Counted from the first letter of the whole stretch, positions 24,581-40,572 are shown. The stretch: DNA of 62,079 nt, filler included, from 3 parts of 3 records of this genome joined end to end with filler, not necessarily neighbours in it, one strand, 5' to 3'. Numbers and translations: made by a program. The notes: generated from the sequence alone by a model not told the origin.

Positions 24581-25696
24581 CTGGATCTCGCTGGTGCCAT
24601 CCCAGATCCGTTCCACGCGGGCGTCGCGCCAGAAGCGTTCGATGGGGAAGTCGTCCATCAAACCCATGCCACCGAAGATCTGCAGTGTCGTGTCGGTGAC
24701 GTGCGCCAGCATTTCGGTCGCGTAAACCTTGGCGCTCGCAATCTCGCGGTTGGCGGGCAAACCCTGGTCGAGACGCCAGGCTCCGGCAAGCGTCAGCCAG
24801 TCGGCAGCATCGATCTCGGTGATCATGTCGGCGACCTGGAAGCTGACGCCCTGGAACTTGGCGATCGCCTGGCCGAACTGCTTGCGCTCGGCGGCATAGT
24901 TCACCGCATAGTCGAAACAGCGGCGGGCCCGGCCAACGCTCATGGTGGCAACCGTCAGACGGGTGGCATAAAGCCATTCGTTCATCACCTCAAAGCCACC
25001 GTCGACTTCGCCGAGCACCTGGCTGTCCGGCAGGCGGCAATTGTCGAAGTAGAGAATGCAGTTTTTGTAGCCCCGATGACTGACGGAGCGATAGCCGTCG
25101 CGCACCTCGAAGCCGGGTGTGCCCCGGTCGACCAGAAAACAGGTGATGCGCTTCTTGGGGCCTTTTGGTGTTTCGTCAACGCCGGTCGCCACAAACACGA
25201 TGAAGAAATCCGCGTGTTCGGCGCCGGAGATGAAATGCTTGGAGCCGGAGACCACCCAGTCTCCTCCGTCGCGCACCGCCTGGCATTTCATGCCGCGCAC
25301 ATCCGAGCCGGCATCGGGTTCGGTCATGGCCAGCGCGTCCATCTTCTCGCCGCGCACGGCCGGCAGAAGGTAGCGCTCGATCTGCTCGCCCTTGCAGGCC
25401 ATCAGGATGTTCTGGGGGCGGCCGAAAAAGTGGTTCAACGCCATCGATCCGCGCCCCAGTTCCCGTTCCACCAGGGTGAAATCAAGATGGCTCAGGCCGG
25501 CGCCGCCCACTTCTTCCGGGAAGTTACAGGCGTAGAAGCCGAGATCGATACATTTGCGCTTGATCTCCTCGCCGAGTTCGGCGGGCACCTGGCCCGTCTT
25601 CTCGACAAGTTCCTCATGCGGGTAAATCTCGTTTTCAACGAAGGACCGGACCGTGGAGACGATCATCTCCTGTTCTTCGCTCAGCCCAAAATGCAT
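24581..25696 (-). CDS. Acyl-CoA dehydrogenase, 3' end truncated by the contig end
   Basis: AMTEPDAGSD, GSKHFIS, RKQFGQAI and IWDGTSEIQ motifs. Confidence 0.92.
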
Positions 25697-27525: not shown

Positions 27526-28008
27526 ATGGCCTGCACCAAGGACGACTTCACCAGAGATCTTCAGAGCGAAATCCCGCATCTGCGCAGATACGCCCGCTCT
27601 CTTACGCGAAACCCTGAAGCCGGCGATGATCTGATGCAGACCTCGCTGGAAAAGGCGCTGCGGCATCACGCCAGCTTCCACTGCGGTACTCAGCTGCGCC
27701 GCTGGCTGTTCACGATTGCCCGCAATGCCTATCGCGACGAAAGAAAATGGCTTGCCCGGCGGGGTGACCACCTGCCCATCGAGGACTGGCTTCAGGAAAC
27801 CCAGGCAGCGCCCGCTCAGGAAAAGCATCTGGAGCTGGAAGACGTTGCCAGGGGCATCGCCGGACTTCGGCCAGAAGACAGGGATGCTCTCGAATTGCGG
27901 GTGTTTTCGGGCCTGTCCACCGGGCAAATTGCCAAGCAGACGGGTGTGGCCGTCGGAACGGTGAAAAGCCGGCTCTCCAGGGCGCGGCACCTGCTTGCTG
28001 CCGTCTGA
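27526..28008 (+). CDS. ECF RNA polymerase sigma factor
   Basis: Region 2 (LRRYARSL..DDLMQ..WLFTIARN) and region 4 (GTVKSRLSRAR). Confidence 0.9.
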   Translation: MACTKDDFTRDLQSEIPHLRRYARSLTRNPEAGDDLMQTSLEKALRHHASFHCGTQLRRWLFTIARNAYRDERKWLARRGDHLPIEDWLQETQAAPAQEKHLELEDVARGIAGLRPEDRDALELRVFSGLSTGQIAKQTGVAVGTVKSRLSRARHLLAAV

Positions 28009-28581: not shown

Positions 28582-29316
28582 CTAGACGACCTGCCGGATG
28601 ACGCTCAATACCTTGGCTATGATGCGGACTTCCGTTGCTTCTTCATCGTGCTCGTTGAAGATCACTGGCTCCTGAAAGCGCGGGTCGTTGGATTCCGGTT
28701 GCAGTTCTATCTGGCCGTTCCGGCGAATGATCCGCTTGGCGGTGCGTTCGATGGTATGGCCACCATCTCTGGTCCGCTCCACGACGGCAAGGTCTCCCGA
28801 CTTGATCTCGATGCCGGCTTCCAGGTAGTCGACGCACAGGATCAAATCGCCGCTCCAGGCGATCCGGTTGAGGCTTTCGCCATTGATTTGCAAAAGATAT
28901 TGGCTTTCGCTCGGAAAGCGAAGGTCTCCCGCGAAACTGGTTTTCTTGGTGGCGTCCGTCTCGAACAGTCCGGACTCCATCCAGAGGCCGGCAGCCACCT
29001 GGCCCTTGATCTCCAGAGGTGTGGCGGCTCTTGAGGGTGCGCTGGAGGCATCCAGATCGGTGATGGAATCGGGGGCGAGCGCAAGAATGTCTTCCCGGGT
29101 GATCGGTTGCTCGCCCTTGCCCAGGAGGACAGGGAGAAGCTTCGCCACGAAATCCGACGGCAGTGCAGGTTTCAGGTAGTCGGCGCTGAAGTAGCGCTGG
29201 ATGGAAGAGGCGTTCTGATAGCCCATGGCCCGTGCGATGGCGCGGATCGACAGGCCACTGCGGTCCTTCAGGTCCACAAGCTGGCGGGAGACTGCAGATT
29301 GTTCGTCCATATCCAT
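28582..29316 (-). CDS. CI/LexA-like phage repressor (HTH + S24 peptidase)
   Basis: N-terminal HTH (GLSIRAIARAMGY..SSIQRYF), Ala-Gly cleavage site (VAAG), catalytic Ser (NGESL) and Lys (RTAKR). Confidence 0.9.
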   Translation of the reverse strand: MDMDEQSAVSRQLVDLKDRSGLSIRAIARAMGYQNASSIQRYFSADYLKPALPSDFVAKLLPVLLGKGEQPITREDILALAPDSITDLDASSAPSRAATPLEIKGQVAAGLWMESGLFETDATKKTSFAGDLRFPSESQYLLQINGESLNRIAWSGDLILCVDYLEAGIEIKSGDLAVVERTRDGGHTIERTAKRIIRRNGQIELQPESNDPRFQEPVIFNEHDEEATEVRIIAKVLSVIRQVV

Positions 29317-29836: not shown

Positions 29837-30252
29837 TGGCTTCGGGAGGACTGGTCGACAGGATCGCTGCCGAGTATGGCGTTCATTTCATCAGCCACAC
29901 CAGACGGGTGCAAGGTCGGCACCAGTCGAAGGCCCGCAGAACTTGCCAGACCCTGCTGACGAAACACGGGGCGGAACATCTGCGCCTCGTCTTCGGTCTG
30001 ATCAACACCGCGGAGAACCGGGGGAACTGGTCTGCGCCATGCTTTACTGCCGTTTCCTGGCTTGTCTTGAACAAGCCGGACTGGGTGGAACGGCGAGGTT
30101 TTCTGGACCAGTTCGACAGGATCGATCTGGAGGCGTTGCTTGGCAGTGCAAGGCATATAAACCCGTCCGCTCCGACCCTTACGCTCGCTGTTCTGCTCTC
30201 CTACGAACTTGACAAACTCCTGGAAACGGGCCGGGAGGGGATCGCTGCATGA
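29836..30252 (+). CDS. Hypothetical prophage protein
   Basis: Translationally coupled to the upstream ORF; globular-looking 138 aa. Confidence 0.65.
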   Translation: MASGGLVDRIAAEYGVHFISHTRRVQGRHQSKARRTCQTLLTKHGAEHLRLVFGLINTAENRGNWSAPCFTAVSWLVLNKPDWVERRGFLDQFDRIDLEALLGSARHINPSAPTLTLAVLLSYELDKLLETGREGIAA

Positions 30253-30407
30253 GTACTATTGTCAGTTGGTGTCGGTTGATTACACTGCGGCCGTCAATCA
30301 TCGGCTGTATTGAGTCGCTCAGGGATTGCACGCTTGGCTTGCCGCGCTCGGGGGAGGCGGCGCCGGACGGATCTTTCACCGGTATTTTGAGAGAGGGGGG
30401 TTTGAAC

Positions 30408-30572
30408 ATGAACGGTTACCTGACGAAGGCGCAGATTTTTGCCTTTGAACGCGGAGCGACCGCGTGCCGGGAAGGCAAGTCCCGTGAGGACAATCCTTAT
30501 CCGCCGAAGGCCGATTACTTCGGTTTGTGGGAAGAGGGCTACCAGAAAGAGCGTGAGGGCCAGGGCAAATAA
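30408..30572 (+). CDS. Rmf/CrpP-like small protein (54 aa)
   Basis: G-rich RBS; AFERGATA..GKSREDNPY....WEEGY matches the RMF pattern A..RG..A..G.S.E.CPY...W..GW. Confidence 0.65.
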   Translation: MNGYLTKAQIFAFERGATACREGKSREDNPYPPKADYFGLWEEGYQKEREGQGK

Positions 30573-30658
30573 CCGCCTCAGGCCTGCATCTTTGCTGCCG
30601 CGGGGCCGTTTAAGCGGCCGCGCGGTTCTGTGCCCACTACAGTTTCAAGAGAGACGAT

Positions 30659-31042
30659 ATGGAAACAAGCGTACCTGACCAGATCCTGGCCCGGTTGACG
30701 GAGGCTGTCGAAGTGATTGCGGTGACCGGCAAGGGTGATGGACCGCGGGCGGTTCTGGCAAGCTGGCCCGAATGCCAGGGCAAGATCGCCCGGCGTCGTC
30801 GCACCTACCCGCCCCGGGCGATCAGCCGGGCTGAAGAGGCGATCACCTGGTTCTCCCTGATCGAGGACCTGGATGCGCGCCGCGCCCTGCAGTTCGAAGT
30901 GATGTGCAAGGCGGGCGGCGGCAAGTTCTCCCGGATCTGCGAAAAATACGGCTGGAAACGCTCGACGGTTACCAGCCGCAACAAGGCCGTTCTGCGCCGG
31001 CTGGCGAAAAGGCTTGGTGAGGAAAGCCCCGTCGATCACTGA
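30659..31042 (+). CDS. DUF6362-like phage HTH protein (putative late regulator slot)
   Basis: RLTEAVEV..WP..PPRAISRAEEAITW plus a C-terminal HTH (FSRICEKYGWKRSTV). Confidence 0.65.
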   Translation: METSVPDQILARLTEAVEVIAVTGKGDGPRAVLASWPECQGKIARRRRTYPPRAISRAEEAITWFSLIEDLDARRALQFEVMCKAGGGKFSRICEKYGWKRSTVTSRNKAVLRRLAKRLGEESPVDH

Positions 31043-31307
31043 ACGGTGCGACGCCGGACCGGAGGCGGGCTGGTGTCTTGCTGATCCGGGAATTGGCTTT
31101 TGAAAGAAGATGTCATCCCTCCTGCGTTGCTCCAATGCAGGAGGGATGCACGACTTGAAAGAGGGGCTTCGCCCTTGTTCTCAAAAGGTTTGCAGCAGGT
31201 TTTGCAATCGCCCCTTTACGGTTGTTGGATGTTTGAACTACAACTTTTTAATTGCTCGTCCCCCGCGTCGACACCGGGACATTTGGACAGATGGTTTGGA
31301 GAAATTG

Positions 31308-31601
31308 ATGACCGACTTGAAGACACTGACCCTTCACGACTTTGAAAAGCTGCTGGATCAGGTATTCGAGGTCAGGTCGGTTCCGGCTGAAATCCAGTTG
31401 TCCCTCGTGGAGGTCAAATTGATGGGCTCCGGCGAGCGGCAGGGAGGGGCTTTTTCCACGTTGTGGCAAGGTCCGCGGGAGCCATTGCTGGAGCAATCCA
31501 TCTACAGGCTCTATCGGCCGGATTTCGGCGAGCAGGACGTGTTTCTGGTTCCGGTCGCGCAAAAAGAAGCCGGCATTCAGTATGAAGCCGTGTTCACCTG
31601 A
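31308..31601 (+). CDS. DUF6916-like protein associated with tail-collar clusters
   Basis: GGAG RBS; F..LLDQVF, LSLVEV, FSTLWQGP..L.QSIY.L, VFLVPV and YEAVF at the C-terminus. Confidence 0.75.
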   Translation: MTDLKTLTLHDFEKLLDQVFEVRSVPAEIQLSLVEVKLMGSGERQGGAFSTLWQGPREPLLEQSIYRLYRPDFGEQDVFLVPVAQKEAGIQYEAVFT

Positions 31602-31658
31602 TCGCATACTGTCTGACAGGCTGGTGGCCGCCGCAGTCTGGTGGCTGGGCTCGGTTCT

Positions 31659-32207
31659 TCAGGTTTGGCAGGGGTGTTCCATGAGATCATAGACGCCCTT
31701 TTCTTCCCGCTTTTCGAAACCGAGGCGGTGATAGAGCCGCATGGCAGGATTTTCCTTTTCGACATGAATGGAAAGCGCTTTGCCAACTTCTTGCGCCTCT
31801 TCCATCAGATCCTGCAAGACGGCGCTGCCAAGGCCTTGTCCCTGTACTTCGGGTATCAAGGCGATGTCGATAATCCGGTGTTCGCGGGTCCAGCGTTCCA
31901 GGTAAAGCCTGCCAACAGGTCTGGCGTCTCGTTCTATCACCAGCCAGAGGGCATCAGGATAATGCTCCTGATAATGTCTGTGCTGGGCCTCGAATTGCAT
32001 CGCGATAAAGGCCTGCTTTTCGGCTTCCGTCCATGGAGTGCGCGCAAGCTCTGCCTCGCGCGTCGAACGGTATAGGCTTGCCAGAAACGGAAGATCGCCC
32101 GAATGCAAGGCCCGGTAGGTGATGCCCCGGGCCGCCGCGCGTGCGCGCGGGGCCAGGGACATGTCAGTCTGCGGCATCGGCAGATCGATCGCAAACGCGG
32201 TCGTCAT
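31659..32207 (-). CDS. GNAT N-acetyltransferase of tail-collar clusters
   Basis: LYRSTREAEL..QFEAQHRHY, QGQGLGS and NPAMRLYHRLGF motifs. Confidence 0.9.
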   Translation of the reverse strand: MTTAFAIDLPMPQTDMSLAPRARAAARGITYRALHSGDLPFLASLYRSTREAELARTPWTEAEKQAFIAMQFEAQHRHYQEHYPDALWLVIERDARPVGRLYLERWTREHRIIDIALIPEVQGQGLGSAVLQDLMEEAQEVGKALSIHVEKENPAMRLYHRLGFEKREEKGVYDLMEHPCQT

Positions 32208-33427
32208 TCGGTGTTCGGCGTGACGTCCCGGGTCAGTGCGCTTACGGAAAGCGGTCCGCCCATGGAAGTCCAGGTTGCCGACCAGTGATCAAGCGATATC
32301 TGCGGCAGGTAGGAAGCCGTGTTTGACGCCGGATCGAGGGCGAAAAGGCTCAGGAGCGTATTGGCGTTCGGCTGAAGTTTGAGCGTGCTGCCACCATCCG
32401 TATGGGCGATGACCCGTGGAGCCGTCCAGGAGGTTTCCACGGAACTGGTCTGGTAGCTCGCGTAGACCGGACTGTCGGATCCTGAGACAGTCAGCGCAAC
32501 CAGATAAATTCCTCCGTTGGAGGAGTTGGAAGCGGCCATGCTGCCGACAGGCGCACCAAACGTTGCAAACAGTGCCCAGTCGGAGAAGTCGAGTGAACTG
32601 ACTTCGTCCTGAGCTTTCATGTAAATATTGTTTCCGATGCGGGCAAAGATGTGAACGAGCGCATTGCCGTCCATGCAAAGGACAAGCTGTTCGAAGCCGG
32701 TCAGGCCGCCGCTGATATCTTGCCAACCTTCCCAGCCCTCCGGCAGAAGCGGCCTGTCGTTGGACTGGAAGTTCAGATAAGGCACGCCGTCCGAATTGAT
32801 GCCGGTGAGAATGATGCGGCCATCGGCGTTCTGGGTTGCAGCGAGGCTCCGCAGCGCCCCGGCCATTTGTTGCCAGTCCGCCCAGGGCTGGCTCGGCGGA
32901 ATTTCGACGGGTACCGTAACTTCAATTGGTGTCGTCGTGCCTGGCGGGACTACCGTGATGGTTTCCATCTGTACGTTGTTGTTGTTCTGGAAACGCCACC
33001 AGATGGCGTTGTCCGTCGCCGAACTTGTGACGAAAATGTTCTGCCGACCGGTGACGCCGTTGATCAGCAACGTATCATTGAAACCTGGAACACCGGCAGG
33101 TTTGCCGAGGTCAAGCGGGTCAGCAAAACGCTGTGGCGCGTTTTCGTCCCGGTTTTCCCGGATATAGGCCAGGTTTCCGGACCCGCTGTCTTCCGCAAGC
33201 AGGGCGACATAGCCTTCCTGGGTCACGGATGCGTTGAGCCGTTCGGTGGCAAAGCTTGAATTCGTTAGCTGAGTAAAGGAGGCGCTGAAAGCGCCGTTCT
33301 CAGACGTCTGATCCTTGTACTCAAGTGCCCCGTTCGGTGTGACTGCGGCAAAGAAAATCCGGAAATAGACCGGATCGGCCGTCACGTTCCCTTCAAATTC
33401 CTCGGGAACTGCTTCTTCGACTGACAT
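32204..33427 (-). CDS. Hypothetical protein, putative PLL/fucose-lectin-like beta-propeller
   Basis: GAGG RBS; repeated W..W..(L/I/M).G blades (PWADWQQMAG, GWEGWQDISGG, WSATWTSMGG); no signal peptide; overlaps the GNAT start. Confidence 0.55.
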   Translation of the reverse strand: MSVEEAVPEEFEGNVTADPVYFRIFFAAVTPNGALEYKDQTSENGAFSASFTQLTNSSFATERLNASVTQEGYVALLAEDSGSGNLAYIRENRDENAPQRFADPLDLGKPAGVPGFNDTLLINGVTGRQNIFVTSSATDNAIWWRFQNNNNVQMETITVVPPGTTTPIEVTVPVEIPPSQPWADWQQMAGALRSLAATQNADGRIILTGINSDGVPYLNFQSNDRPLLPEGWEGWQDISGGLTGFEQLVLCMDGNALVHIFARIGNNIYMKAQDEVSSLDFSDWALFATFGAPVGSMAASNSSNGGIYLVALTVSGSDSPVYASYQTSSVETSWTAPRVIAHTDGGSTLKLQPNANTLLSLFALDPASNTASYLPQISLDHWSATWTSMGGPLSVSALTRDVTPNTE

Positions 33428-33491
33428 GATGCGTTTCCTCTTGCTGATCTGAAGCCGGCGGCCTGGCCTGTCCGGCAACGTCCTGCATTGG

Positions 33492-34019
33492 TTAGCCGCG
33501 GGAGGGGTAAAGCCCCTGGAGCGCAATAATGAAGTTCAGCGTCAGATACGGCTGAACATTGTCGTGTGACTGGCCGCCGCCGGTGGCGGACAGTGTTTCC
33601 ATGGCCATGTCGACCTGGTCCGTCTGAGTGTCCGTGTGGTAAAGCGAATCCAGGCCGGAGCTGGAAAAGGAAGTCGATGACGAGGGGCCGGGAACGCCGC
33701 CGCTGCCACTGGTTGCTCGTACCGTATGAGAATGTGAGGGGATCTGCGCTTCTGTCAGGGTGACGGTCGTAACACCAACCTTTTCCCCCAGCCTGCGGGA
33801 CGTGAGGCCAGGGCCTCTGCCTGGATGCATCGGGGCGCGGCCCTGCAGATCCGGCAGACCCATGGTGCTGCGTCCATCGCCGCCGTAGGTCGTTCCAATA
33901 AGCGAGAACAACGCCGTGTTCTGGGAGATGGGAAGGAGCTGGCCGTCACAAAAGGCCCAGCTTCGAGGGGCGAAATTGCCTGCGAAAATTCGGATTTCAG
34001 CGATAAAGGGTTCCGACAT
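33492..34019 (-). CDS. Phage tail-collar domain protein 3 (MdpB/RhiB-like)
   Basis: MSEPFIAEIRIFAGNFAPRSWAFCDGQLL..LFSLIGTTYGGDG..LPDLQGR; C-terminal FIIALQGLYPSR. Confidence 0.92.
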   Translation of the reverse strand: MSEPFIAEIRIFAGNFAPRSWAFCDGQLLPISQNTALFSLIGTTYGGDGRSTMGLPDLQGRAPMHPGRGPGLTSRRLGEKVGVTTVTLTEAQIPSHSHTVRATSGSGGVPGPSSSTSFSSSGLDSLYHTDTQTDQVDMAMETLSATGGGQSHDNVQPYLTLNFIIALQGLYPSRG

Positions 34020-34029
34020 GGTTCGCCTC

Positions 34030-34548
34030 CTAATGCCTGCTGGGGTAAACGCCGTAGAGCGCAATGATGAAATGCACGCATATTGTCGGCATCAGGTTCG
34101 TGTGCGACTGGGAGCCGCCAGCGTTTGAAATCATGTCTTGCCCCATGGAAATGTCCTGACTGGCATCGGCGTAGAAGCTCACGCCAGCGCCGGCTGCCGG
34201 AACATGCGTCGCCGGCGACGTCTGGTCGGCCAGGCCAGTGTTGGCATTGAAGCCATGCGAGTGACTGGCAAGCTGGTTGACCGTGAGCGTTTCCTTTTCC
34301 GACCCGCTTTTGGAGCCGAGCCGCCGCGGGCTGAGGCCGGGGCCGGTGCCCGCGTGCAGCGGAATTCGTCCGCGCATGTCCGGCAGACCGAATGTGGTTC
34401 GGCCATCTCCGCCGTAGATGGTTCCAAGGAGTGAAAACAGGGCATCGTTCTGGGAAACTGCCAGCAGCTGACCGTCGCAGTAGGCCCAGCCGCGCGGTGC
34501 GAAATTACCCGCAAACATGCGGATTTCACCGACGAAAGGTTCAGACAT
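34030..34548 (-). CDS. Phage tail-collar domain protein 2 (MdpB/RhiB-like)
   Basis: MSEPFVGEIRMFAGNFAPRGWAYCDGQ..LPDMRGR; C-terminal FIIALYGVYPSR. Confidence 0.92.
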   Translation of the reverse strand: MSEPFVGEIRMFAGNFAPRGWAYCDGQLLAVSQNDALFSLLGTIYGGDGRTTFGLPDMRGRIPLHAGTGPGLSPRRLGSKSGSEKETLTVNQLASHSHGFNANTGLADQTSPATHVPAAGAGVSFYADASQDISMGQDMISNAGGSQSHTNLMPTICVHFIIALYGVYPSRH

Positions 34549-34566
34549 TCTATGTCCTTTCGGAGA

Positions 34567-35079
34567 TTAGTTGCGTGACGGAAACAGGCCTTGAAGGGCG
34601 ATGCAGAAATTGAGCGTCAGGTAGGGCTGCATGTTGTTGTGCGCCTGCCCGCCACCTGCGTTGGTCACGGTTCCTGATCTCATCTGTGTCATCGTGCCAA
34701 CTTCGTAAGGCCGATAGGCCTTGTCCGGTGCGATTTCGGATCCAAACAGGGCCATGTTGGGCGTTCTGCTGTTTCCTGCGGTGGAGACCGCTTTCACCGG
34801 GTGGGAATGTTCCGGGATTTCAGCTGCCGTAAGTGTGACGGTTTCCGCTCCCCCCTTCTGGCCGAGCTGATATCCGGCGCCCTCGTGGATCGGCGTCCGG
34901 CTGCGCAGGTCGGGCAGGGCGAATGTCGTCCGCCCATCTCCTCCATAGGTCGTGCCCAACAGCGAATAGAGCGACTGGTTCTGATTGATCGGCAAAATCT
35001 GTCCGTCGGTAAAAGCCCAGCCGCGTGGCGCGAAATTGAAGCCGACAATCCGTATTTCGGCGAGAAATGGTTCTGACAT
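34567..35079 (-). CDS. Phage tail-collar domain protein 1 (MdpB/RhiB-like)
   Basis: MSEPFLAEIRIVGFNFAPRGWAFTDGQ..LPDLRSR; C-terminal FCIALQGLFPSR; GGAGG RBS. Confidence 0.92.
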   Translation of the reverse strand: MSEPFLAEIRIVGFNFAPRGWAFTDGQILPINQNQSLYSLLGTTYGGDGRTTFALPDLRSRTPIHEGAGYQLGQKGGAETVTLTAAEIPEHSHPVKAVSTAGNSRTPNMALFGSEIAPDKAYRPYEVGTMTQMRSGTVTNAGGGQAHNNMQPYLTLNFCIALQGLFPSRN

Positions 35080-35338
35080 GTTTCCTCCCGTTGCTTCCGA
35101 AGGAAGTTTCGGTCTTGCAGATGTTGTCTGGATTTCCTGCTCTTGCGAATCACAGGTTGTATGAAAGAGAAATTGGACTCAAATTACATTGCAACCTTCA
35201 CATACATATATTTCAAAATGCAATTAGAAAATTCCAAAATCAGTTCCTGAATTATTGAGTGTTCGTTACTGGAAATAGTGTTAAAGATCGCCAAATTATG
35301 CAATTTTTAAGGGAATTATTCTCCTCAAAGAGGAAGAA

Positions 35339-35391
35339 ATTCAATTCTGACCAAATCTTTCAACCATAGTTAGAATTTGTCAGAATTGAAT
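35339..35391. promoter_or_regulatory. Long inverted repeat in the AT-rich divergent promoter region
   Basis: ATTCAATTCTGAC (35339-35351) and its exact reverse complement GTCAGAATTGAAT (35379-35391), with further inner symmetry. Confidence 0.55.
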
Positions 35392-35565
35392 CCTTTTTCC
35401 TGACGCAGATGTGGTCAGTCAAAAATGTGATCGGATTTGCGCTTGAATTCTATTTAAGTTTGAGCGTAGTAGAATTTAAACCAAAGATTGTTTTGATAAA
35501 AATCACGTTATAGTTGTGTTTGACAGCTAACAAAAACCGGGCCTTCGGGCCTTGGCTCTTTCTTT

Positions 35566-38500
35566 TTGGGGTGCAGCGACCGTGGTTCGCTCTGTGGTGA
35601 TTTGATGATTTGTGACGTATGGGGAGCAAGGCTCAGCAAAGCTGCGCGCGCAGGCGTCTTGTTGCGCTTCGTACAGCTGGCGTTTCTGATACTTTTTCTG
35701 GGAGCCCTGCCTGACGACGCGAAGGCGGCCTACACAGACTGTCCAAGCAATTCTGTCCCGCTCGATCCTCTCGTGTTGAACCTCACGCTGGATGAATGCA
35801 CGCGGGAAAGTGGCATCGGACCTACGACGGCGGACGACGACTGGATATTGATCCAGGATCAGGGTTCTGGAAGCAGCCTCACCAATTTCGATATCAACAA
35901 CGGTCCAAACGACCCGGGGAATGTACTCTCGTATTCCGTTACCAATGGGACGGATACCATCAACGTAACGTCGCCTGGTATTCAGACGATCGATTGTACC
36001 ACGACATGCACAATCACCGGATCCTACGGTGCTACAGGCATTAATTTCACCTATCTTGATGCCGGTTCCAGCGGCGAAGTTACTCCACCGACGACACCTC
36101 CAACATTCACCCAGGCATTTGCCCCCAGTACGATCGTGGCAAACGGCACCTCGACCGTCACATTCACGATCAACAACTCTGCGAACGGTGTGGACGCGAC
36201 ATCTCTCGATTTCACCGACAACTTGCCTTCGGGAGTGACCGTTGCCTCTCCGTCGAACGCTGCCACGACGTGTACCGGTGGCACACTTACGGCGACCAGC
36301 GGATCGGGTGTAATCAGTTACACTGGCGGAACCGCTGCGGCGGGTGCGACTTGTACCGTCAGTGCCGATGTGACGTCTGCAAGTGACGGAAGTTACGTCA
36401 ACACCACAGGTGATCTCACATCATCGCTGGGAAATTCCGGGACGTCATCTGCCACGCTGACGGTTGCCTCACCTGAAATCAACGTACAGGGCAACGGGGT
36501 AAGCATTGCCAGTGGGGATACGACCCCTTCGGCGGCAGATGATACCGAATTCGGCAGCGTCTCTGTTTCGAGCGGTACAAATCCAAATACCTTCACAATC
36601 CAGAACACGGGTAATGGTACGCTCTCACTGACCAGTGTGACATCCTCTGACAACGCACAATTCGCGGTGTCGGGGACAACGGCCGGTTCGATACCGTCTT
36701 CGGGATCTGTGACCTTCACGGTCACCTTCGATCCGTCCGCGACGGGCTTGCAAACGTCAACGATTACGATCGTCTCGAGCGACGCGGATGAGAGTCCCTA
36801 TACGTTCAGTGTTCAAGGAACAGGCATTGCACCCGAGATCGACGTCCAGGGAAACGGCGTCAGTATTGCCAGCGGGGATACGTCTCCGAGTGCGGCAGAT
36901 GATACCGACTTCGGGAGTGTTGCGGTTTCGAGCGGATCTGTGGCTAATACGTTCACCATCGAGAACACAGGAACCGACACGCTGACGCTTACAAGTGTAA
37001 CGTCGTCGGACAACACCCAGTTCGCCATTTCCGGTACGACAAGCGGATCGATCGCAACTTTGGGGTCTTCGACCTTTACCGTCACTTTTGATCCCAACGC
37101 CGGTGGGAACCAGACTGCGACGATCACCATCGTTTCCGATGACATCGATGAAGGGACTTACACGTTCACGGTACAAGGGACTGGTATCGCGCCAGAGATC
37201 AACGTTCAGGGGAACGGGACAAGTATCGTCAGTGGCGATACGACGCCGTCCGCAGCGGATGATACCGACTTCGGCAACGTTTCGGTTGCGAGCGGATCCA
37301 ACGCAAATACGTTCACGATCCAGAACACCGGAACAGATGCACTGACGCTGACGAGCGTGACATCTTCCGACAACACACAATTCGCATTATCCGGCACGAC
37401 CAGCGGCTCGATCGCCGCCTTGGGGTCTGTGACCTTCACGGTCACTTTTGATCCCAATGCGCTGGGAACGCAGACGTCGACAATCACGATTGAATCCAAC
37501 GATCCCGACGAAGGAACATACACATTCAGGGTACAGGGCACAGGTGTGGCACCGGAGATCAACGTCCAGGGGAACGGCACTAGTATCGCCAGTGGTGATA
37601 TAACGCCGTCGGCTGCGGACGACACCGACTTCGGTAGTGTTTCAGTGTCCAGCGGAACCAATGCGAATGTCTTCACGATCCAGAACACGGGTACGGACAC
37701 GCTGACGCTGACGAGCGTGACATCCTCGGACAATACGCAATTTGCGGTGTCGGGCACGACGAGCGGTTCGATCGCCGCCCTGGGGTCGGTGACGTTCACG
37801 GTCACTTTTGATCCCAATGCGCTTGGAACCCAAACGTCGACGATCACGATTGACTCCAACGATGCCGACGAGGGAACCTACACATTCAGGGTACAGGGCA
37901 CGGGAACGTCCACGCCGAGTTTCACGCAGTCCTTTGCTCCAGCGACCATTCTGTCAGGTGGAACCTCGACGGTTTCCTTCGTCATCAACAACTCCGCCAA
38001 CGCGGTCGCCGCGACCTCGCTGGATTTCACCGACAATCTCCCCGCAGGATTGACAGTTGCCTCGCCTGCAAACGCCTCAACCACCTGCACCGGGGGAACG
38101 ATAACGGCGACGACAGGTTCTAGTGTGATTTCCTACACGGGAGGCACCGTTGCGGCCGGGGGCAGCTGTTCCTTGAGCGCGGACGTTACCGGCTCCACAG
38201 ATGGTTCCTTCGCGAACACAACTGGGGACCTGACCTCCAGCCTTGGAAACTCCGGAACGTCTTCAAGCACTCTGACTGTTGCTACTCCCGAAATCGACGT
38301 GCAGCGTCCCGCAGGAAACTCTATTGCGGATAACGGAACGGATGCTCAGGGAACAGTAAACGTGGGAGACCAGCAAACACTGGTCTACACGATCGAAAAC
38401 ACGGGTACCGCGACGCTTACCCTGACCGGAACGCCAACCAGTGCCTCGGCAGGCAATGTTTCGGTCGATTCAATCTCCGCGCCGGGGCTCACAACGCTCG

Positions 38501-40572
38501 CGGGTGGTGCATCGACCACCTTCACTGTTCTCTACACGCCTACTGCAATTGGCAATTTTTCGTTCGAACTCGATATTCTCAGCGATGACGCCGACGAACC
38601 CACGTATGACATCCTGGTGAGCGGTACTGCGATTGGCAGTCCGGAAATCGAGGTTTCATCGTCGACAGGCAATGCCGTATCGGACGGGGGGACAGACACC
38701 GTTCCCGGAATTGTCATGCCGGGAACAACGTCAACCATCACTTACACGATCACGAACACCGGGTCGGCTGTCCTCAACCTCACAACTCCAACGGTTGGTG
38801 CGAATGTTACCGGCACAAGCAACGTCACAGTCAACAGCTTCACATTGAGTTCCAACACCGTAAGCAGCGGTGGCGGAACGGCGACGCTGGCTGTGGCCTA
38901 TACGCCAACAGCGCCTGGAGCGTTCGGGTTCGACTTCAACTTCGCCAATGACGATGCGGACGAAAACCCCTTCAACGTATCGGTGAGCGGGACGGCAAGC
39001 GGGGCGGCGGCGGCGCTGTCGGTCGTGTCGGGGTCCGGGCAAAGTTCCGGAGTCGGAACCCGGTTCGAGGCAGTTCTCGTCGCGAGAGCGACAGACGTCA
39101 ACAACAACGCTGCTGCAGGTGTCAGTGTAACATTCACTGCACCGGCCGGTGGCGCGTCACTGACATTTGCGAGCACGGGAACCAACACGGAAACGGTGAC
39201 CACGGCTGCGGACGGAACGGCGATCAGTTCCGTCATGACCGCAAACGCGGTTGCCTCGTCCTATAACGGCGGTGGTGCTCTCACGCCATATTCGGTGACG
39301 GCGAGTGCCACGGGGCTGAGCAGCGTCAGCTTCTCTCTCACCAATGACCGGGATGCATCGGCCGATATCCAGAAAACGAAGGAAGTGATTGCCTCCTTCG
39401 TGACAAGCCGGGCCAATGCGATCGTGTCCGGACAGCCTGATATCGTCTCGCGCCTGACCAGCGGCCCCTTTGGGCGGCAGCGTGGGCGCAACGGATTCAA
39501 TTTCGACGTTACGCCCACCTCGCAGTCCGGAAACTTCCAGTTCTCCCTGCGCGCCTTTGCCAATTCTCTTCAACAAGGTGGTGGCACTGGAAACAATGCG
39601 GCAATGGCAGGAGCCGGGAGCGGCGTTCGCGCGGCGAATGCCGAGCCGGAACGGTACGCGGTCTTTGACAATTTCACCTCCTCCGGCACGATGAGTTACA
39701 CGGCCGTTGGTCCGCAGGTGATGCAGGATGATACCCTCGCGATCCTGAGCGGCACCAACGGAGATGCATCTTCAGGCGGCGAGGGCAGTGCCGAGTGGCA
39801 GTCGGGATGGGACTTCTGGGCCCAGGGAACGTATGCAATTACCGACAACAACAGCAGCAACAGCAAGACCGGGCTGTTTTTTGCCGGGGTCGACTATCGC
39901 TACAAGGACCGGGCCGTCCTGGGCTTGTTGGGGCAGCTCGACCTGACCGAGGAAAGAAACGGTGCCGCCGATACCTCCGCCGACGGCGTCGGCTGGATGG
40001 CTGGCCCTTATGCTGTTCTCCGGGTTCATCAGAATTTCTACCTGGATGGTCTGGCGACGTATGGCCAGTCCTACAACACCGTGAACGCGCTTGGACTTTT
40101 CGAAGATGATTTCAGAACCCAGCGGTTTCTGTTGCAGGGCGGTTTGACTGGCGACTTCAAGCTCAGTGAAACGACCAGGGTCAGTCCATTTGCCCGCATC
40201 ACCTATTACTACGAAGAACAGGAAAGCTACACGGACACATTGGGGCGGCTGATCCCGTCACAGGATTTCGATCTGGGGCGGCTCGAGTTCGGACCAAAGG
40301 TCTCCTGGGACCTGCAGTTGAACGAGCTGCTGTTCTCGCCGTTCCTGTCGCTCTCCGGGATCTACGACTTCAACAAGTTGCAGGACGATACCCCGACGGA
40401 TGCGACGCTTGCCTCTTCCGATGAAGATCTGCGGGCACGTGTGGAAGCTGGCGCGGGTCTGCTGGTGCCTGGCCGTAACATCCAGATTTCCGGGGAGGGC
40501 TTTTACGACGGGATCGGGACGTCCGACTTCCGCTCGTATGGTGCAACGCTTAACGTCACCATTCCGTTCTGA
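35566..40572 (+). CDS. Large autotransporter adhesin with Ig-like (choice-of-anchor D-like) repeats
   Basis: Signal peptide (..DDAKA), Thr/Ser-rich beta-sandwich repeats and a C-terminal beta-barrel ending in an aromatic residue (LNVTIPF). Start codon uncertain. Confidence 0.88.
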   Translation: MGCSDRGSLCGDLMICDVWGARLSKAARAGVLLRFVQLAFLILFLGALPDDAKAAYTDCPSNSVPLDPLVLNLTLDECTRESGIGPTTADDDWILIQDQGSGSSLTNFDINNGPNDPGNVLSYSVTNGTDTINVTSPGIQTIDCTTTCTITGSYGATGINFTYLDAGSSGEVTPPTTPPTFTQAFAPSTIVANGTSTVTFTINNSANGVDATSLDFTDNLPSGVTVASPSNAATTCTGGTLTATSGSGVISYTGGTAAAGATCTVSADVTSASDGSYVNTTGDLTSSLGNSGTSSATLTVASPEINVQGNGVSIASGDTTPSAADDTEFGSVSVSSGTNPNTFTIQNTGNGTLSLTSVTSSDNAQFAVSGTTAGSIPSSGSVTFTVTFDPSATGLQTSTITIVSSDADESPYTFSVQGTGIAPEIDVQGNGVSIASGDTSPSAADDTDFGSVAVSSGSVANTFTIENTGTDTLTLTSVTSSDNTQFAISGTTSGSIATLGSSTFTVTFDPNAGGNQTATITIVSDDIDEGTYTFTVQGTGIAPEINVQGNGTSIVSGDTTPSAADDTDFGNVSVASGSNANTFTIQNTGTDALTLTSVTSSDNTQFALSGTTSGSIAALGSVTFTVTFDPNALGTQTSTITIESNDPDEGTYTFRVQGTGVAPEINVQGNGTSIASGDITPSAADDTDFGSVSVSSGTNANVFTIQNTGTDTLTLTSVTSSDNTQFAVSGTTSGSIAALGSVTFTVTFDPNALGTQTSTITIDSNDADEGTYTFRVQGTGTSTPSFTQSFAPATILSGGTSTVSFVINNSANAVAATSLDFTDNLPAGLTVASPANASTTCTGGTITATTGSSVISYTGGTVAAGGSCSLSADVTGSTDGSFANTTGDLTSSLGNSGTSSSTLTVATPEIDVQRPAGNSIADNGTDAQGTVNVGDQQTLVYTIENTGTATLTLTGTPTSASAGNVSVDSISAPGLTTLAGGASTTFTVLYTPTAIGNFSFELDILSDDADEPTYDILVSGTAIGSPEIEVSSSTGNAVSDGGTDTVPGIVMPGTTSTITYTITNTGSAVLNLTTPTVGANVTGTSNVTVNSFTLSSNTVSSGGGTATLAVAYTPTAPGAFGFDFNFANDDADENPFNVSVSGTASGAAAALSVVSGSGQSSGVGTRFEAVLVARATDVNNNAAAGVSVTFTAPAGGASLTFASTGTNTETVTTAADGTAISSVMTANAVASSYNGGGALTPYSVTASATGLSSVSFSLTNDRDASADIQKTKEVIASFVTSRANAIVSGQPDIVSRLTSGPFGRQRGRNGFNFDVTPTSQSGNFQFSLRAFANSLQQGGGTGNNAAMAGAGSGVRAANAEPERYAVFDNFTSSGTMSYTAVGPQVMQDDTLAILSGTNGDASSGGEGSAEWQSGWDFWAQGTYAITDNNSSNSKTGLFFAGVDYRYKDRAVLGLLGQLDLTEERNGAADTSADGVGWMAGPYAVLRVHQNFYLDGLATYGQSYNTVNALGLFEDDFRTQRFLLQGGLTGDFKLSETTRVSPFARITYYYEEQESYTDTLGRLIPSQDFDLGRLEFGPKVSWDLQLNELLFSPFLSLSGIYDFNKLQDDTPTDATLASSDEDLRARVEAGAGLLVPGRNIQISGEGFYDGIGTSDFRSYGATLNVTIPF
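36472..37911 (+). repeat. Four tandem 360-bp (120-aa) intragenic repeats
   Basis: Units starting PEI(N/D)VQGNG at 36472, 36832, 37192 and 37552. Two further divergent copies at about 38287-38994; a second repeat type (FTQ.FAP.TI..) at about 36100 and 37915. Confidence 0.92.

Follow-up and report, generated by a model that had tools for sequence, protein, structure and literature searches.

What are three consecutive genes for phage-type tail-collar proteins doing beside a giant autotransporter gene in a stretch of bacterial DNA with no phage around them? The question is raised by a locus at positions 31308–40572 of the DNA analysed here, a stretch of 62,079 nucleotides (nt) referred to below as the window. 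The host of the locus is a marine alphaproteobacterium. The initial annotation had described a triplet of collar genes followed by genes for a lectin-like propeller and a GNAT acetyltransferase, with a convergent DUF6916 gene and a divergent autotransporter gene, and open reading frame (ORF) calls together with Pfam recover every one of these elements in place. We refer to the collar, propeller, GNAT and DUF6916 genes as the cassette. As set out below, the locus is almost certainly one copy of a conserved and widespread non-viral cellular cassette, in its alphaproteobacterial lectin-bearing subtype; it is a lectin-bearing variant with an autotransporter partner, and its parts are of known kinds: a phage fibre tip, a lectin and an adhesin.

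The operon is encoded on the minus strand and begins with collar paralogue A (170 aa; 34567–35079; PF07484 E = 3.6e-27, Gp10_C E = 3.8e-06), followed after 18 nt by paralogue B (172 aa; 34030–34548; PF07484 E = 7.6e-30) and after a further 10 nt by paralogue C (175 aa; 33492–34019; PF07484 E = 5.4e-28). The start of C is taken at the ATG of the MSEPF motif; an upstream TTG would give a 190-aa ORF. A gap of 64 nt precedes the gene for the 407-aa propeller protein (32204–33427), which overlaps the GNAT gene (182 aa; 31659–32207; PF00583 E = 1.6e-14) by 4 bp. The DUF6916 gene (97 aa; 31308–31601, plus strand; PF21880 E = 1.5e-24) converges on the GNAT gene across a 57-nt gap, and its probable start, the ATG at 31308, is the same in 17/17 close orthologues. 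At the other end of the operon an AT-rich spacer (35080–35604; 36–38% G+C vs 58–59% for the flanking genes) separates paralogue A from the autotransporter gene, which is transcribed divergently on the plus strand from an ATG about 0.5 kb away.

The cassette is conserved as a unit in other genomes. Among 34 loci that encode the 407-aa protein, surveyed with one genome per species, three collar genes lie directly upstream of the propeller gene in all 34, and their best matches follow the order A-B-C in 33; in the remaining locus (L034) the second slot is marginally closer to A. The GNAT gene is present in 33/34 and the convergent DUF6916 gene in 32/34, the exceptions being L028, a truncated locus that ends at a contig edge, for both genes, and L020, where DUF6916 has no match even at E = 1e-3. 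Five genomes with propeller loci contain exactly three PF07484 matches each, and these are the triplet. On the megaplasmid of Ruegeria sp. TM1040 the genes are annotated as a choice-of-anchor D protein, three ‘tail fiber proteins’, a hypothetical protein, a GNAT and another hypothetical protein. The gene TM1040_RS01880, a neighbour of DUF6916 in Ruegeria, was considered as a further cassette member and rejected, as neither the window nor the other loci contain a homologue of it.

The linkage extends well past the propeller-bearing loci. A phylum sample of 401 genomes was scanned for DUF6916 and Collar; DUF6916 occurs in 42, Collar in 90 and both in 41, so that Collar is present in 41/42 genomes with DUF6916 vs 49/359 of the others (Fisher p = 1.4e-29). 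Read from the coordinate tables, 42 of the 46 DUF6916 matches lie no more than 5 kb from a listed collar match, and the exceptions are one 45 kb off (G089), one on a different contig from its collar match (G083), one in a genome with no collar (G121) and a second copy in G223. Three or six collar matches are found in 28 of the 41 genomes with both families. A second sample took in 20 kb around each of 20 DUF6916 matches and contains 13 collar triplets, one doublet and six loci with a single longer collar gene. Within this sample a GNAT gene is present in 14/20 loci among the ORFs scanned and adjoins DUF6916 in those loci, with a 0.7-kb gap in L073 and with the DUF6916 ORF of L081 outside the scanned set. 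Records of plasmids and chromids hold three collar places each in Deinococcus, Paenibacillus, Comamonas, Aminobacter and Sinorhizobium, and two in Fulvitalea.

These surveys bear out the view of the locus as a non-phage module whose members are conserved together: collar, DUF6916 and GNAT genes co-occur, usually with a large surface-protein gene adjacent, and the description of GNAT and DUF6916 as dedicated partners of the collar proteins holds in the sense of conserved linkage. The locus had also been called undescribed, which stands within the full-text literature searched (subscription journals and supplements lay outside its scope): it contains no paper on this cassette, its tail-collar papers make no mention of DUF6916, and no paper in it deals with TM1040_3285 to TM1040_3290.

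Could the triplet nevertheless be all that is left of a decayed prophage, tailocin or contractile injection system, reduced to its fibre genes? In PHROG the collar proteins hit nothing but phage tail families, whose members are far longer and align to them through an internal or C-terminal portion; homologues in phage records, all less than 40% identical, are encoded singly as minor tail proteins, those of Microbacterium phages at 37–39% identity; and 9 of 78 IMG/VR loci carry multi-copy collar arrays. However, each of the other 69 viral loci has one collar domain only, as part of a larger protein, and neither the propeller nor DUF6916 has any match in PHROG. The absence of tube, sheath, baseplate and spike genes noted by the initial annotation is upheld by Pfam scans of 57 further ORFs picked from the window, which are housekeeping, transport and regulatory genes and include none of those families and no capsid or terminase family either. 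The unit is moreover conserved across several alphaproteobacterial families, with a pattern of purifying conservation. A phage remnant is accordingly the least probable of the explanations considered here, and we regard it as very improbable indeed.

Among the IMG/VR arrays, one contig (L091) has nine tandem full-length collar genes forming three triplets and another (L094) has six forming two, both being short contigs labelled viral. A GNAT gene is also present in 4 of the 9 multi-copy loci; L088, L089, L092 and L093 have collar triplets or pairs with a GNAT. These arrays may be cellular cassettes filed as viral, or they may be viral acquisitions. A search of PADLOC-DB 2.0.0 with the cassette proteins (6/6) returned 0 defence families at E <= 0.01.

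All three collar proteins begin with MSEPF..EIR and end with IAL.G..PSR, and B and C are 46% and 56% identical to A, with the divergence concentrated at about residues 100–140. Their PF07484 scores of 94.5, 103.1 and 97.2 bits are far above the cut-off of 24. The best PDB sequence match of a collar protein is a long tail fibre (8kec_A, E = 1.1e-06), and the window proteins correspond to the tip only (collar plus head) of a phage fibre, with no shaft or baseplate-attachment part. The order of collar followed by an HxH head is common to these proteins and to T4 gp12, the C-terminal domain of T4 gp10 and the T4 gp37 tip, as is reflected in the joint Collar and Gp10_C matches. Unlike the T4 fibre tips, the window proteins consist of the roughly 170-aa tip alone, exist as three diverged paralogues, and lie outside a virion gene set.

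An HSH version of the HxH motif is present in all three window paralogues, at H91-S92-H93 in A (34801–34809, minus strand) and at H96/H98 in B and C, and the HxH is invariant in 29/29 orthologues of each. We take it to be the motif that, in the tips of T4 gp12 and gp37, binds a metal on the three-fold axis. A later motif, GG.Q.H.N..P, is likewise invariant across the 29 orthologues of each paralogue. Between such fixed points the proteins vary: conservation among orthologues is 0.43–0.45 in residues 96–140 vs 0.76–0.80 in the N-terminal part and 0.69–0.82 in the C-terminal part, and low conservation of residues 96–140 is the pattern expected of a face that determines specificity.

In a tree of 152 collar proteins the sequences cluster by operon position. 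Paralogue A falls in a position-1 clade, B in a clade (starred; support 96) that holds 45 of 49 position-2 proteins together with two from loci in which the order is swapped, and C in position-3 clades. Position labels change 9 times on the tree against a mean of 72 when shuffled, and none of 200 shuffles gave a count as low. In L071 and L074 the first two collar positions are swapped. As judged from this phylogeny, the paralogues form ancient position-specific clades, which would place the triplication before the spread of the cassette, with each paralogue retained since. The three collar genes of L079 (9597–11581) form a clade of their own with support of 100, and represent a lineage-specific triplication rather than the ancient A/B/C set.

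The closest described parallel is a virophage. In the available text of the report on DSLV2 (PMC12724248), three consecutive PF07484 proteins co-purify as a complex of about 55 kDa, for which the theoretical heterotrimer is 58.3 kDa, and the complex forms 16-nm fibres and binds Synechococcus cells and lipopolysaccharide (LPS). The DSLV2 / Aquatic Virophage 1 lineage has three consecutive, similar, small PF07484 genes as the window does, the likeness being one of gene arrangement, size and domain. By what that text relates, however, the virophage genes are viral, adjoin capsid genes and have their product on the capsid, whereas the window locus has no viral genes and other partners. Because the virophage triplet has been shown to form one, a 1:1:1 heterotrimer of A, B and C is likely by analogy, and the presence of three copies in each of the five checked genomes, the fixed order and the ancient position clades are consistent with it. 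In the mechanism we favour, each paralogue would contribute a collar-plus-head fibre tip to a heterotrimeric head, in which six HxH histidines probably clamp a metal ion.

The other way to use three collar genes would be as three separate homotrimers, each a small lectin-like head with its own specificity, that together form a recognition set. Phage tips of this fold, such as T4 gp12 and gp37, are homotrimers. The cassettes with one or two collar genes (7 of the 20 sampled) indicate that a lone collar protein can function with DUF6916, and the independent triplication in L079 also speaks for homotrimers. Set against these points are the fixed gene order, the one copy per ancient clade in the five checked genomes and the tight 10–18 nt spacing; in addition, the one collar triplet that has been studied, that of DSLV2, was recovered as a heterotrimer. 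We therefore consider separate homotrimers unlikely, and retain the heterotrimeric head for what follows.

Cells have taken up collar domains in other settings as well. RhiB of the Rhizobium rhiABC(D) operon and COG4675 MdpB / Microcystis MrpB are small stand-alone cellular collar proteins like those of the window. In the accessible part of the source for the rhi operon (PMC13133039), RhiB carries the Pfam collar domain, and the operon is expressed in the rhizosphere and influences nodulation, with no giant partner mentioned. That text describes a single collar gene flanked by quorum-sensing genes and, unlike the window, reports no triplet, GNAT, DUF6916 or giant protein there; general Pfam scans of the window turned up no autoinducer synthase or LuxR family. 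A shufflon pilus locus with a PilV-collar fusion (PMC9881135) is an example of a bacterial appendage with a collar domain as its presumed LPS-binding tip, and so provides a precedent for cells re-using this domain on a fibre. There the domain is fused and is varied by DNA inversion, whereas in the window the collar proteins are separate, and its Pfam scans revealed no system for DNA inversion.

The protein encoded immediately downstream of the triplet was predicted to be a lectin-like propeller, and both its modelled fold and its sequence family agree with this. An AlphaFold2 model of the 407-aa protein (predicted local distance difference test score, pLDDT, 90.5; residues 1–18 disordered) is a seven-bladed beta-propeller whose best Foldseek matches are PLL5, PLL3, PLL2 and PHL, with E = 2.2e-15, a probability of 1.00 and a template-modelling (TM) score of 0.82 on the target. 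A profile built from 26 homologues finds the same proteins among PDB sequences (PLL5, E = 1.6e-19; PLL3, E = 3.7e-19). There are 51 homologues in a large protein collection, from Roseibium/Labrenzia, Rhodobacterales, Woodsholea, Pseudovibrio and Mesorhizobium, and PF26607 is precomputed for 36 of them; for the window protein alone the Pfam copy used gives no PF26607 row. The family alignment contains 10 invariant tryptophans. From model and profile together, the 407-aa protein is a true relative of the Photorhabdus PLL lectins (PLL, PLL2-5 and PHL; PDB 8q83, 6t96, 6rg2, 5mxh), with which it has in common the fold, detectable sequence homology, Trp-rich blades and a disordered N-terminal tail that is not a signal. 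It is 18–20% identical to them and longer, at 407 aa vs about 340–370, and unlike them it is encoded within a collar-triplet operon; the likeness is one of fold and sequence. The N-terminal tails of PLL lectins are not recognised as signal peptides, and PLL2 and PLL3 are present in the extracellular fraction, according to the text available of the relevant report (PMC12203525), which sets a precedent for an extracellular lectin that lacks a signal.

Such a propeller would add multivalent sugar binding to a glycan- or LPS-binding face formed by the hypervariable middle loops of the collar head, a division of labour to which we give slightly better than even odds.

The GNAT and DUF6916 proteins are conserved in position but are less readily assigned. 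The GNAT scores 47.1 bits with its best RimI-type model (TIGR01575; cut-off 86.4) and 25.3 bits with another (NF007025; cut-off 173), and its PDB sequence matches are generic GNATs at E = 3e-06 and weaker. The AlphaFold2 model of DUF6916 (pLDDT 92.6) is a small six-stranded beta-barrel, and the extreme C-terminus of the protein, YEAVF(N/T), is conserved. Foldseek found no match to this model at E <= 0.001 in either the PDB or BFVD, the best Z in a wide VIA-align search was 7.5 (MrkH and YcgR-N type split barrels), which is within the background level of that tool, and the ESM Atlas returned DUF6916 clusters only, with no model. Four proteins of 289–375 aa (P0053–P0056) join DUF6916 to an alpha/beta-hydrolase or a methyltransferase; these are possibly gene-call artefacts, and give a weak hint, from sequence, of a partnership with modifying enzymes. 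GNAT and DUF6916 may work as a pair, an accessory sub-module by which the head is modified or escorted, though we think this less likely than not; the linkage is observed and the role is a guess. A SapC-family gene stands beside DUF6916 in L070 (8703–9845, Mesorhizobium) and in L073 (8779–9573), which has a giant of the same Pfam-less type.

Divergent from the operon, the 1668-aa ORF at 35566–40572 opens at a TTG (35566), and the probable start is the ATG at 35605, giving a giant type Va autotransporter of 1655 aa (35605–40572) by Pfam, NCBIfam and translation. Its translation begins with a Sec-type signal ending AKA/AY, and the passenger has two DUF7933 domains and five or six Ig-like repeats of the choice-of-anchor-D/ASH type. 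When the last 339 residues, which end ..NVTIPF, are scanned alone, the autotransporter beta-domain PF03797 (39814–40458, plus strand) is found with 76.8 bits against a cut-off of 26 (E = 2.9e-21); a scan of the whole protein does not give this match. With a Sec signal, a repeat passenger and PF03797, the protein is a classical autotransporter, and its description as one with Ig repeats is sound.

An association with giant surface proteins recurs in other genomes. A giant repeat-rich surface-protein gene, called from stop-to-stop frames, adjoins the cassette in 16 of the 20 DUF6916-sampled loci, and frames of at least 1500 aa occur in the central 10 kb of 15/20 cassette loci vs 4/38 control regions of the same contigs, mostly about 60 kb away and 25–35 kb away on short contigs (Fisher p = 1.3e-6). 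Several of these arrangements resemble an operon; the frames overlap by 4 bp in L074, for example, and are 8 nt apart in L071. Among the propeller-bearing loci, 17/17 from Roseibium, Rhodobacterales and Woodsholea (L001–L017) have the autotransporter gene in divergent orientation, and its orthologue is also divergent from the collar genes in Ruegeria sp. TM1040; in 15/17 loci from Mesorhizobium and Stappia (L018–L034) a frame longer than 2600 aa on the same strand as the collar genes ends 70–360 nt upstream of collar A. The genetic tie to a giant surface protein that had been proposed from the window is therefore seen both in adjacency and in enrichment over controls.

Additional genes accompany some of these giants. 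In L077, L078, L080 and L081 giant DUF4347/Big_12 proteins adjoin single-collar cassettes, with an Asp/Asn beta-hydroxylase alongside in L078, L080 and L081 and HlyD-type genes in all four. L078 and L080 have the full HlyD-type set, made up of proteins of 260 aa and 439 aa and a 697-aa M50-HlyD fusion; two are present in L077, and in L081 only the 439-aa gene was among those scanned. Asparagine-synthase-like, sulfotransferase, HPr-kinase-like and NTP_transf_5 genes recur in the flanks of L065, L068, L069, L076 and L084, where they accompany cassettes that have no giant gene or that stand apart from one. This combination presumably resembles lasso-peptide or other peptide-modification clusters.

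Taken as a whole, the locus is best explained as a non-viral recognition module coupled to a giant surface protein, a reading to which we assign a probability of roughly 45%. The head-and-propeller complex would leave the cell without a classical signal, as the available text on the PLL lectins reports for those proteins, and would then work with the giant surface protein in recognising or adhering to the surface sugars of a partner, be it an algal, coral or plant host or other bacteria. This last step, signal-less export followed by joint action in sugar recognition or adhesion, draws on analogy and is offered tentatively, with the odds somewhat against it.

Several findings weigh against this reading. 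No secretion system was found beside the cassette, and with neither Sec nor Tat signals on its proteins the extracellular action is unproven. A DUF6916 paralogue with a Tat (twin-arginine) signal, which could take a folded trimer across the membrane, is encoded in no more than 2 of the 20 sampled loci (L074 and L075); the window DUF6916 has no RR motif and no hydrophobic region, and the genome of a close relative (G001) contains a single DUF6916 match and no Tat-signal paralogue. As the only DUF6916 of the window has no signal, Tat export by a signal-bearing DUF6916 cannot apply here. The giants themselves fall into at least four unrelated groups in an all-against-all BLASTP comparison (E <= 1e-5), in which the window autotransporter matches its own group only: choice-of-anchor-D autotransporters; He_PIG proteins ending in an autotransporter domain or IPTL-CTERM; DUF4347/Big_12/cadherin proteins beside HlyD-type genes; and a Pfam-less Mesorhizobium/Stappia type. 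The same comparison revealed no docking domain common to the giants, as those of other lineages are unrelated to the window autotransporter, and 4 of the 20 cassettes have no giant neighbour at all. With fewer than three collar genes in 7 of the 20, the heterotrimer is not universal, and conversely 8 genomes have three collar matches and no DUF6916 match. The GNAT reaches no NCBIfam equivalog cut-off, the DUF6916 model has no informative structural relative in the PDB, BFVD and VIA-align searches, and the collar tree comes from a quick search, a careful one being unfinished.

The want of an export route leads to the possibility of a role within the cell, in which the cassette would act on the giant protein or on its production, by modification, by holding it before export or by sensing, and would never be displayed. 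As the initial annotation had it for the collar, propeller and GNAT proteins, inspection finds no hydrophobic N-terminal signal, either Sec or Tat, and this extends to DUF6916; none of five cassette proteins has an export signal. A core member is an acetyl-CoA-dependent enzyme, which is necessarily cytoplasmic, Asp/Asn beta-hydroxylase and sulfotransferase genes recur beside related cassettes, and DUF6916 is fused to an alpha/beta hydrolase or methyltransferase in four proteins. Nevertheless, wherever fibre-tip heads and PLL lectins have been studied they bind sugars outside the cell, so far as the accessible texts go, the hypervariable patch of the collar proteins resembles a surface under diversifying pressure, and some lineages do have a Tat-signal DUF6916 paralogue. 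We regard a purely intracellular role as rather unlikely.

The diversity of the giants, and the cassettes that lack one, would be accommodated if the collar–lectin complex were a free agent, similar to a bacteriocin or symbiosis factor, released by lysis or in vesicles and binding foreign cells or the glycans of a host independently of the autotransporter, with the giant gene simply part of the same accessory island. RhiB offers a model, as a collar protein of an operon that influences nodulation and for which the accessible text mentions no giant partner (PMC13133039), and the cassette is also found on plasmids and chromids. Against an independent agent, giant genes adjoin the cassette at a frequency far above the background of the same genomes, and giant and cassette frames overlap or nearly abut in some loci. 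This explanation seems to us improbable, a shade more so than an intracellular role.

A more specific form of the coupled recognition module can be envisaged, in which a domesticated, three-subunit, metal-clamped phage tip docks on giants that belong to unrelated families and use unrelated secretion routes, while GNAT and DUF6916 pair up to load or mature it; this remains speculative, and we think it unlikely as stated. In the same version the variable loops would set glycan specificity, the PLL lectin would accompany the head, and the surface would be reached without a classical signal.

Stand-alone collar proteins such as COG4675 MdpB and Rhizobium RhiB have been without an assigned function for decades, and the locus supplies a conserved and testable context for them: three non-redundant paralogues together with a genuine lectin, a dedicated acetyltransferase, a DUF6916 protein that is almost never found where collar genes are absent, and a giant adhesin. 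The same arrangement is available in Ruegeria sp. TM1040, which is culturable and completely sequenced. Roseibium and Mesorhizobium, which carry the lectin-bearing subtype, are host-associated, and the cassette may bear on the recognition of algal, coral or plant surfaces. It also illustrates that cells re-use phage receptor-binding modules outside tailocins and injection systems. If the docking version were true, it would represent a general modular route to exchangeable tips on giant surface fibres and a function for the MdpB/RhiB family.

The cassette is represented in RNA libraries. Contigs from 4/4 runs in 4 studies cover it at 95–99% identity, these being Logan assemblies that report presence in the libraries and not strand, level or transcript ends, and so do not prove transcription; a single contig spans 31251–35153, the extent of the cassette. 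In two studies a contig stops at 35142 or 35153, about 65–75 nt upstream of collar A, which is a weak hint that a 5′ end lies there. Between 31000 and 35700 there are 5 promoter-like sites, identified as consensus matches only, vs 1.8 expected, and 3 of these are inside the divergent spacer.

The window as a whole is not uniform. At about 24.5 kb there is a break in composition, with 48% G+C in 1–24530 vs 60% in 24580–62079, and the region syntenic with the Roseibium loci L002 and L003 ends at 24581. PurL of the left part is 61% identical to that of the Roseibium genome G001, and a protein of the right part is 89% identical. The left 24.5 kb contains housekeeping genes and may stem from a different organism, through a chimeric join or concatenation.

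Just upstream of DUF6916 and on the same strand is a DUF6362 gene (30659–31042, plus strand; E = 3.1e-08, above the cut-off), which is preceded by an RMF-like ORF (30249–30572, plus strand); both are kept with the cassette only in close Roseibium relatives. A 185-aa ORF on the opposite strand (30578–31135) is probably spurious. Two further genes lie 2–4 kb from the cassette, one encoding an extracytoplasmic function (ECF) sigma factor with a PhyR-type sigma2 domain (27526–28008, plus strand) and the other an S24 (LexA/CI-like) peptidase-domain protein with an N-terminus like a helix-turn-helix (28582–29316, minus strand). The S24 gene is kept beside the cassette in L001–L003 at 80–84% identity, and the ECF sigma factor and the S24 protein are possible local regulators.

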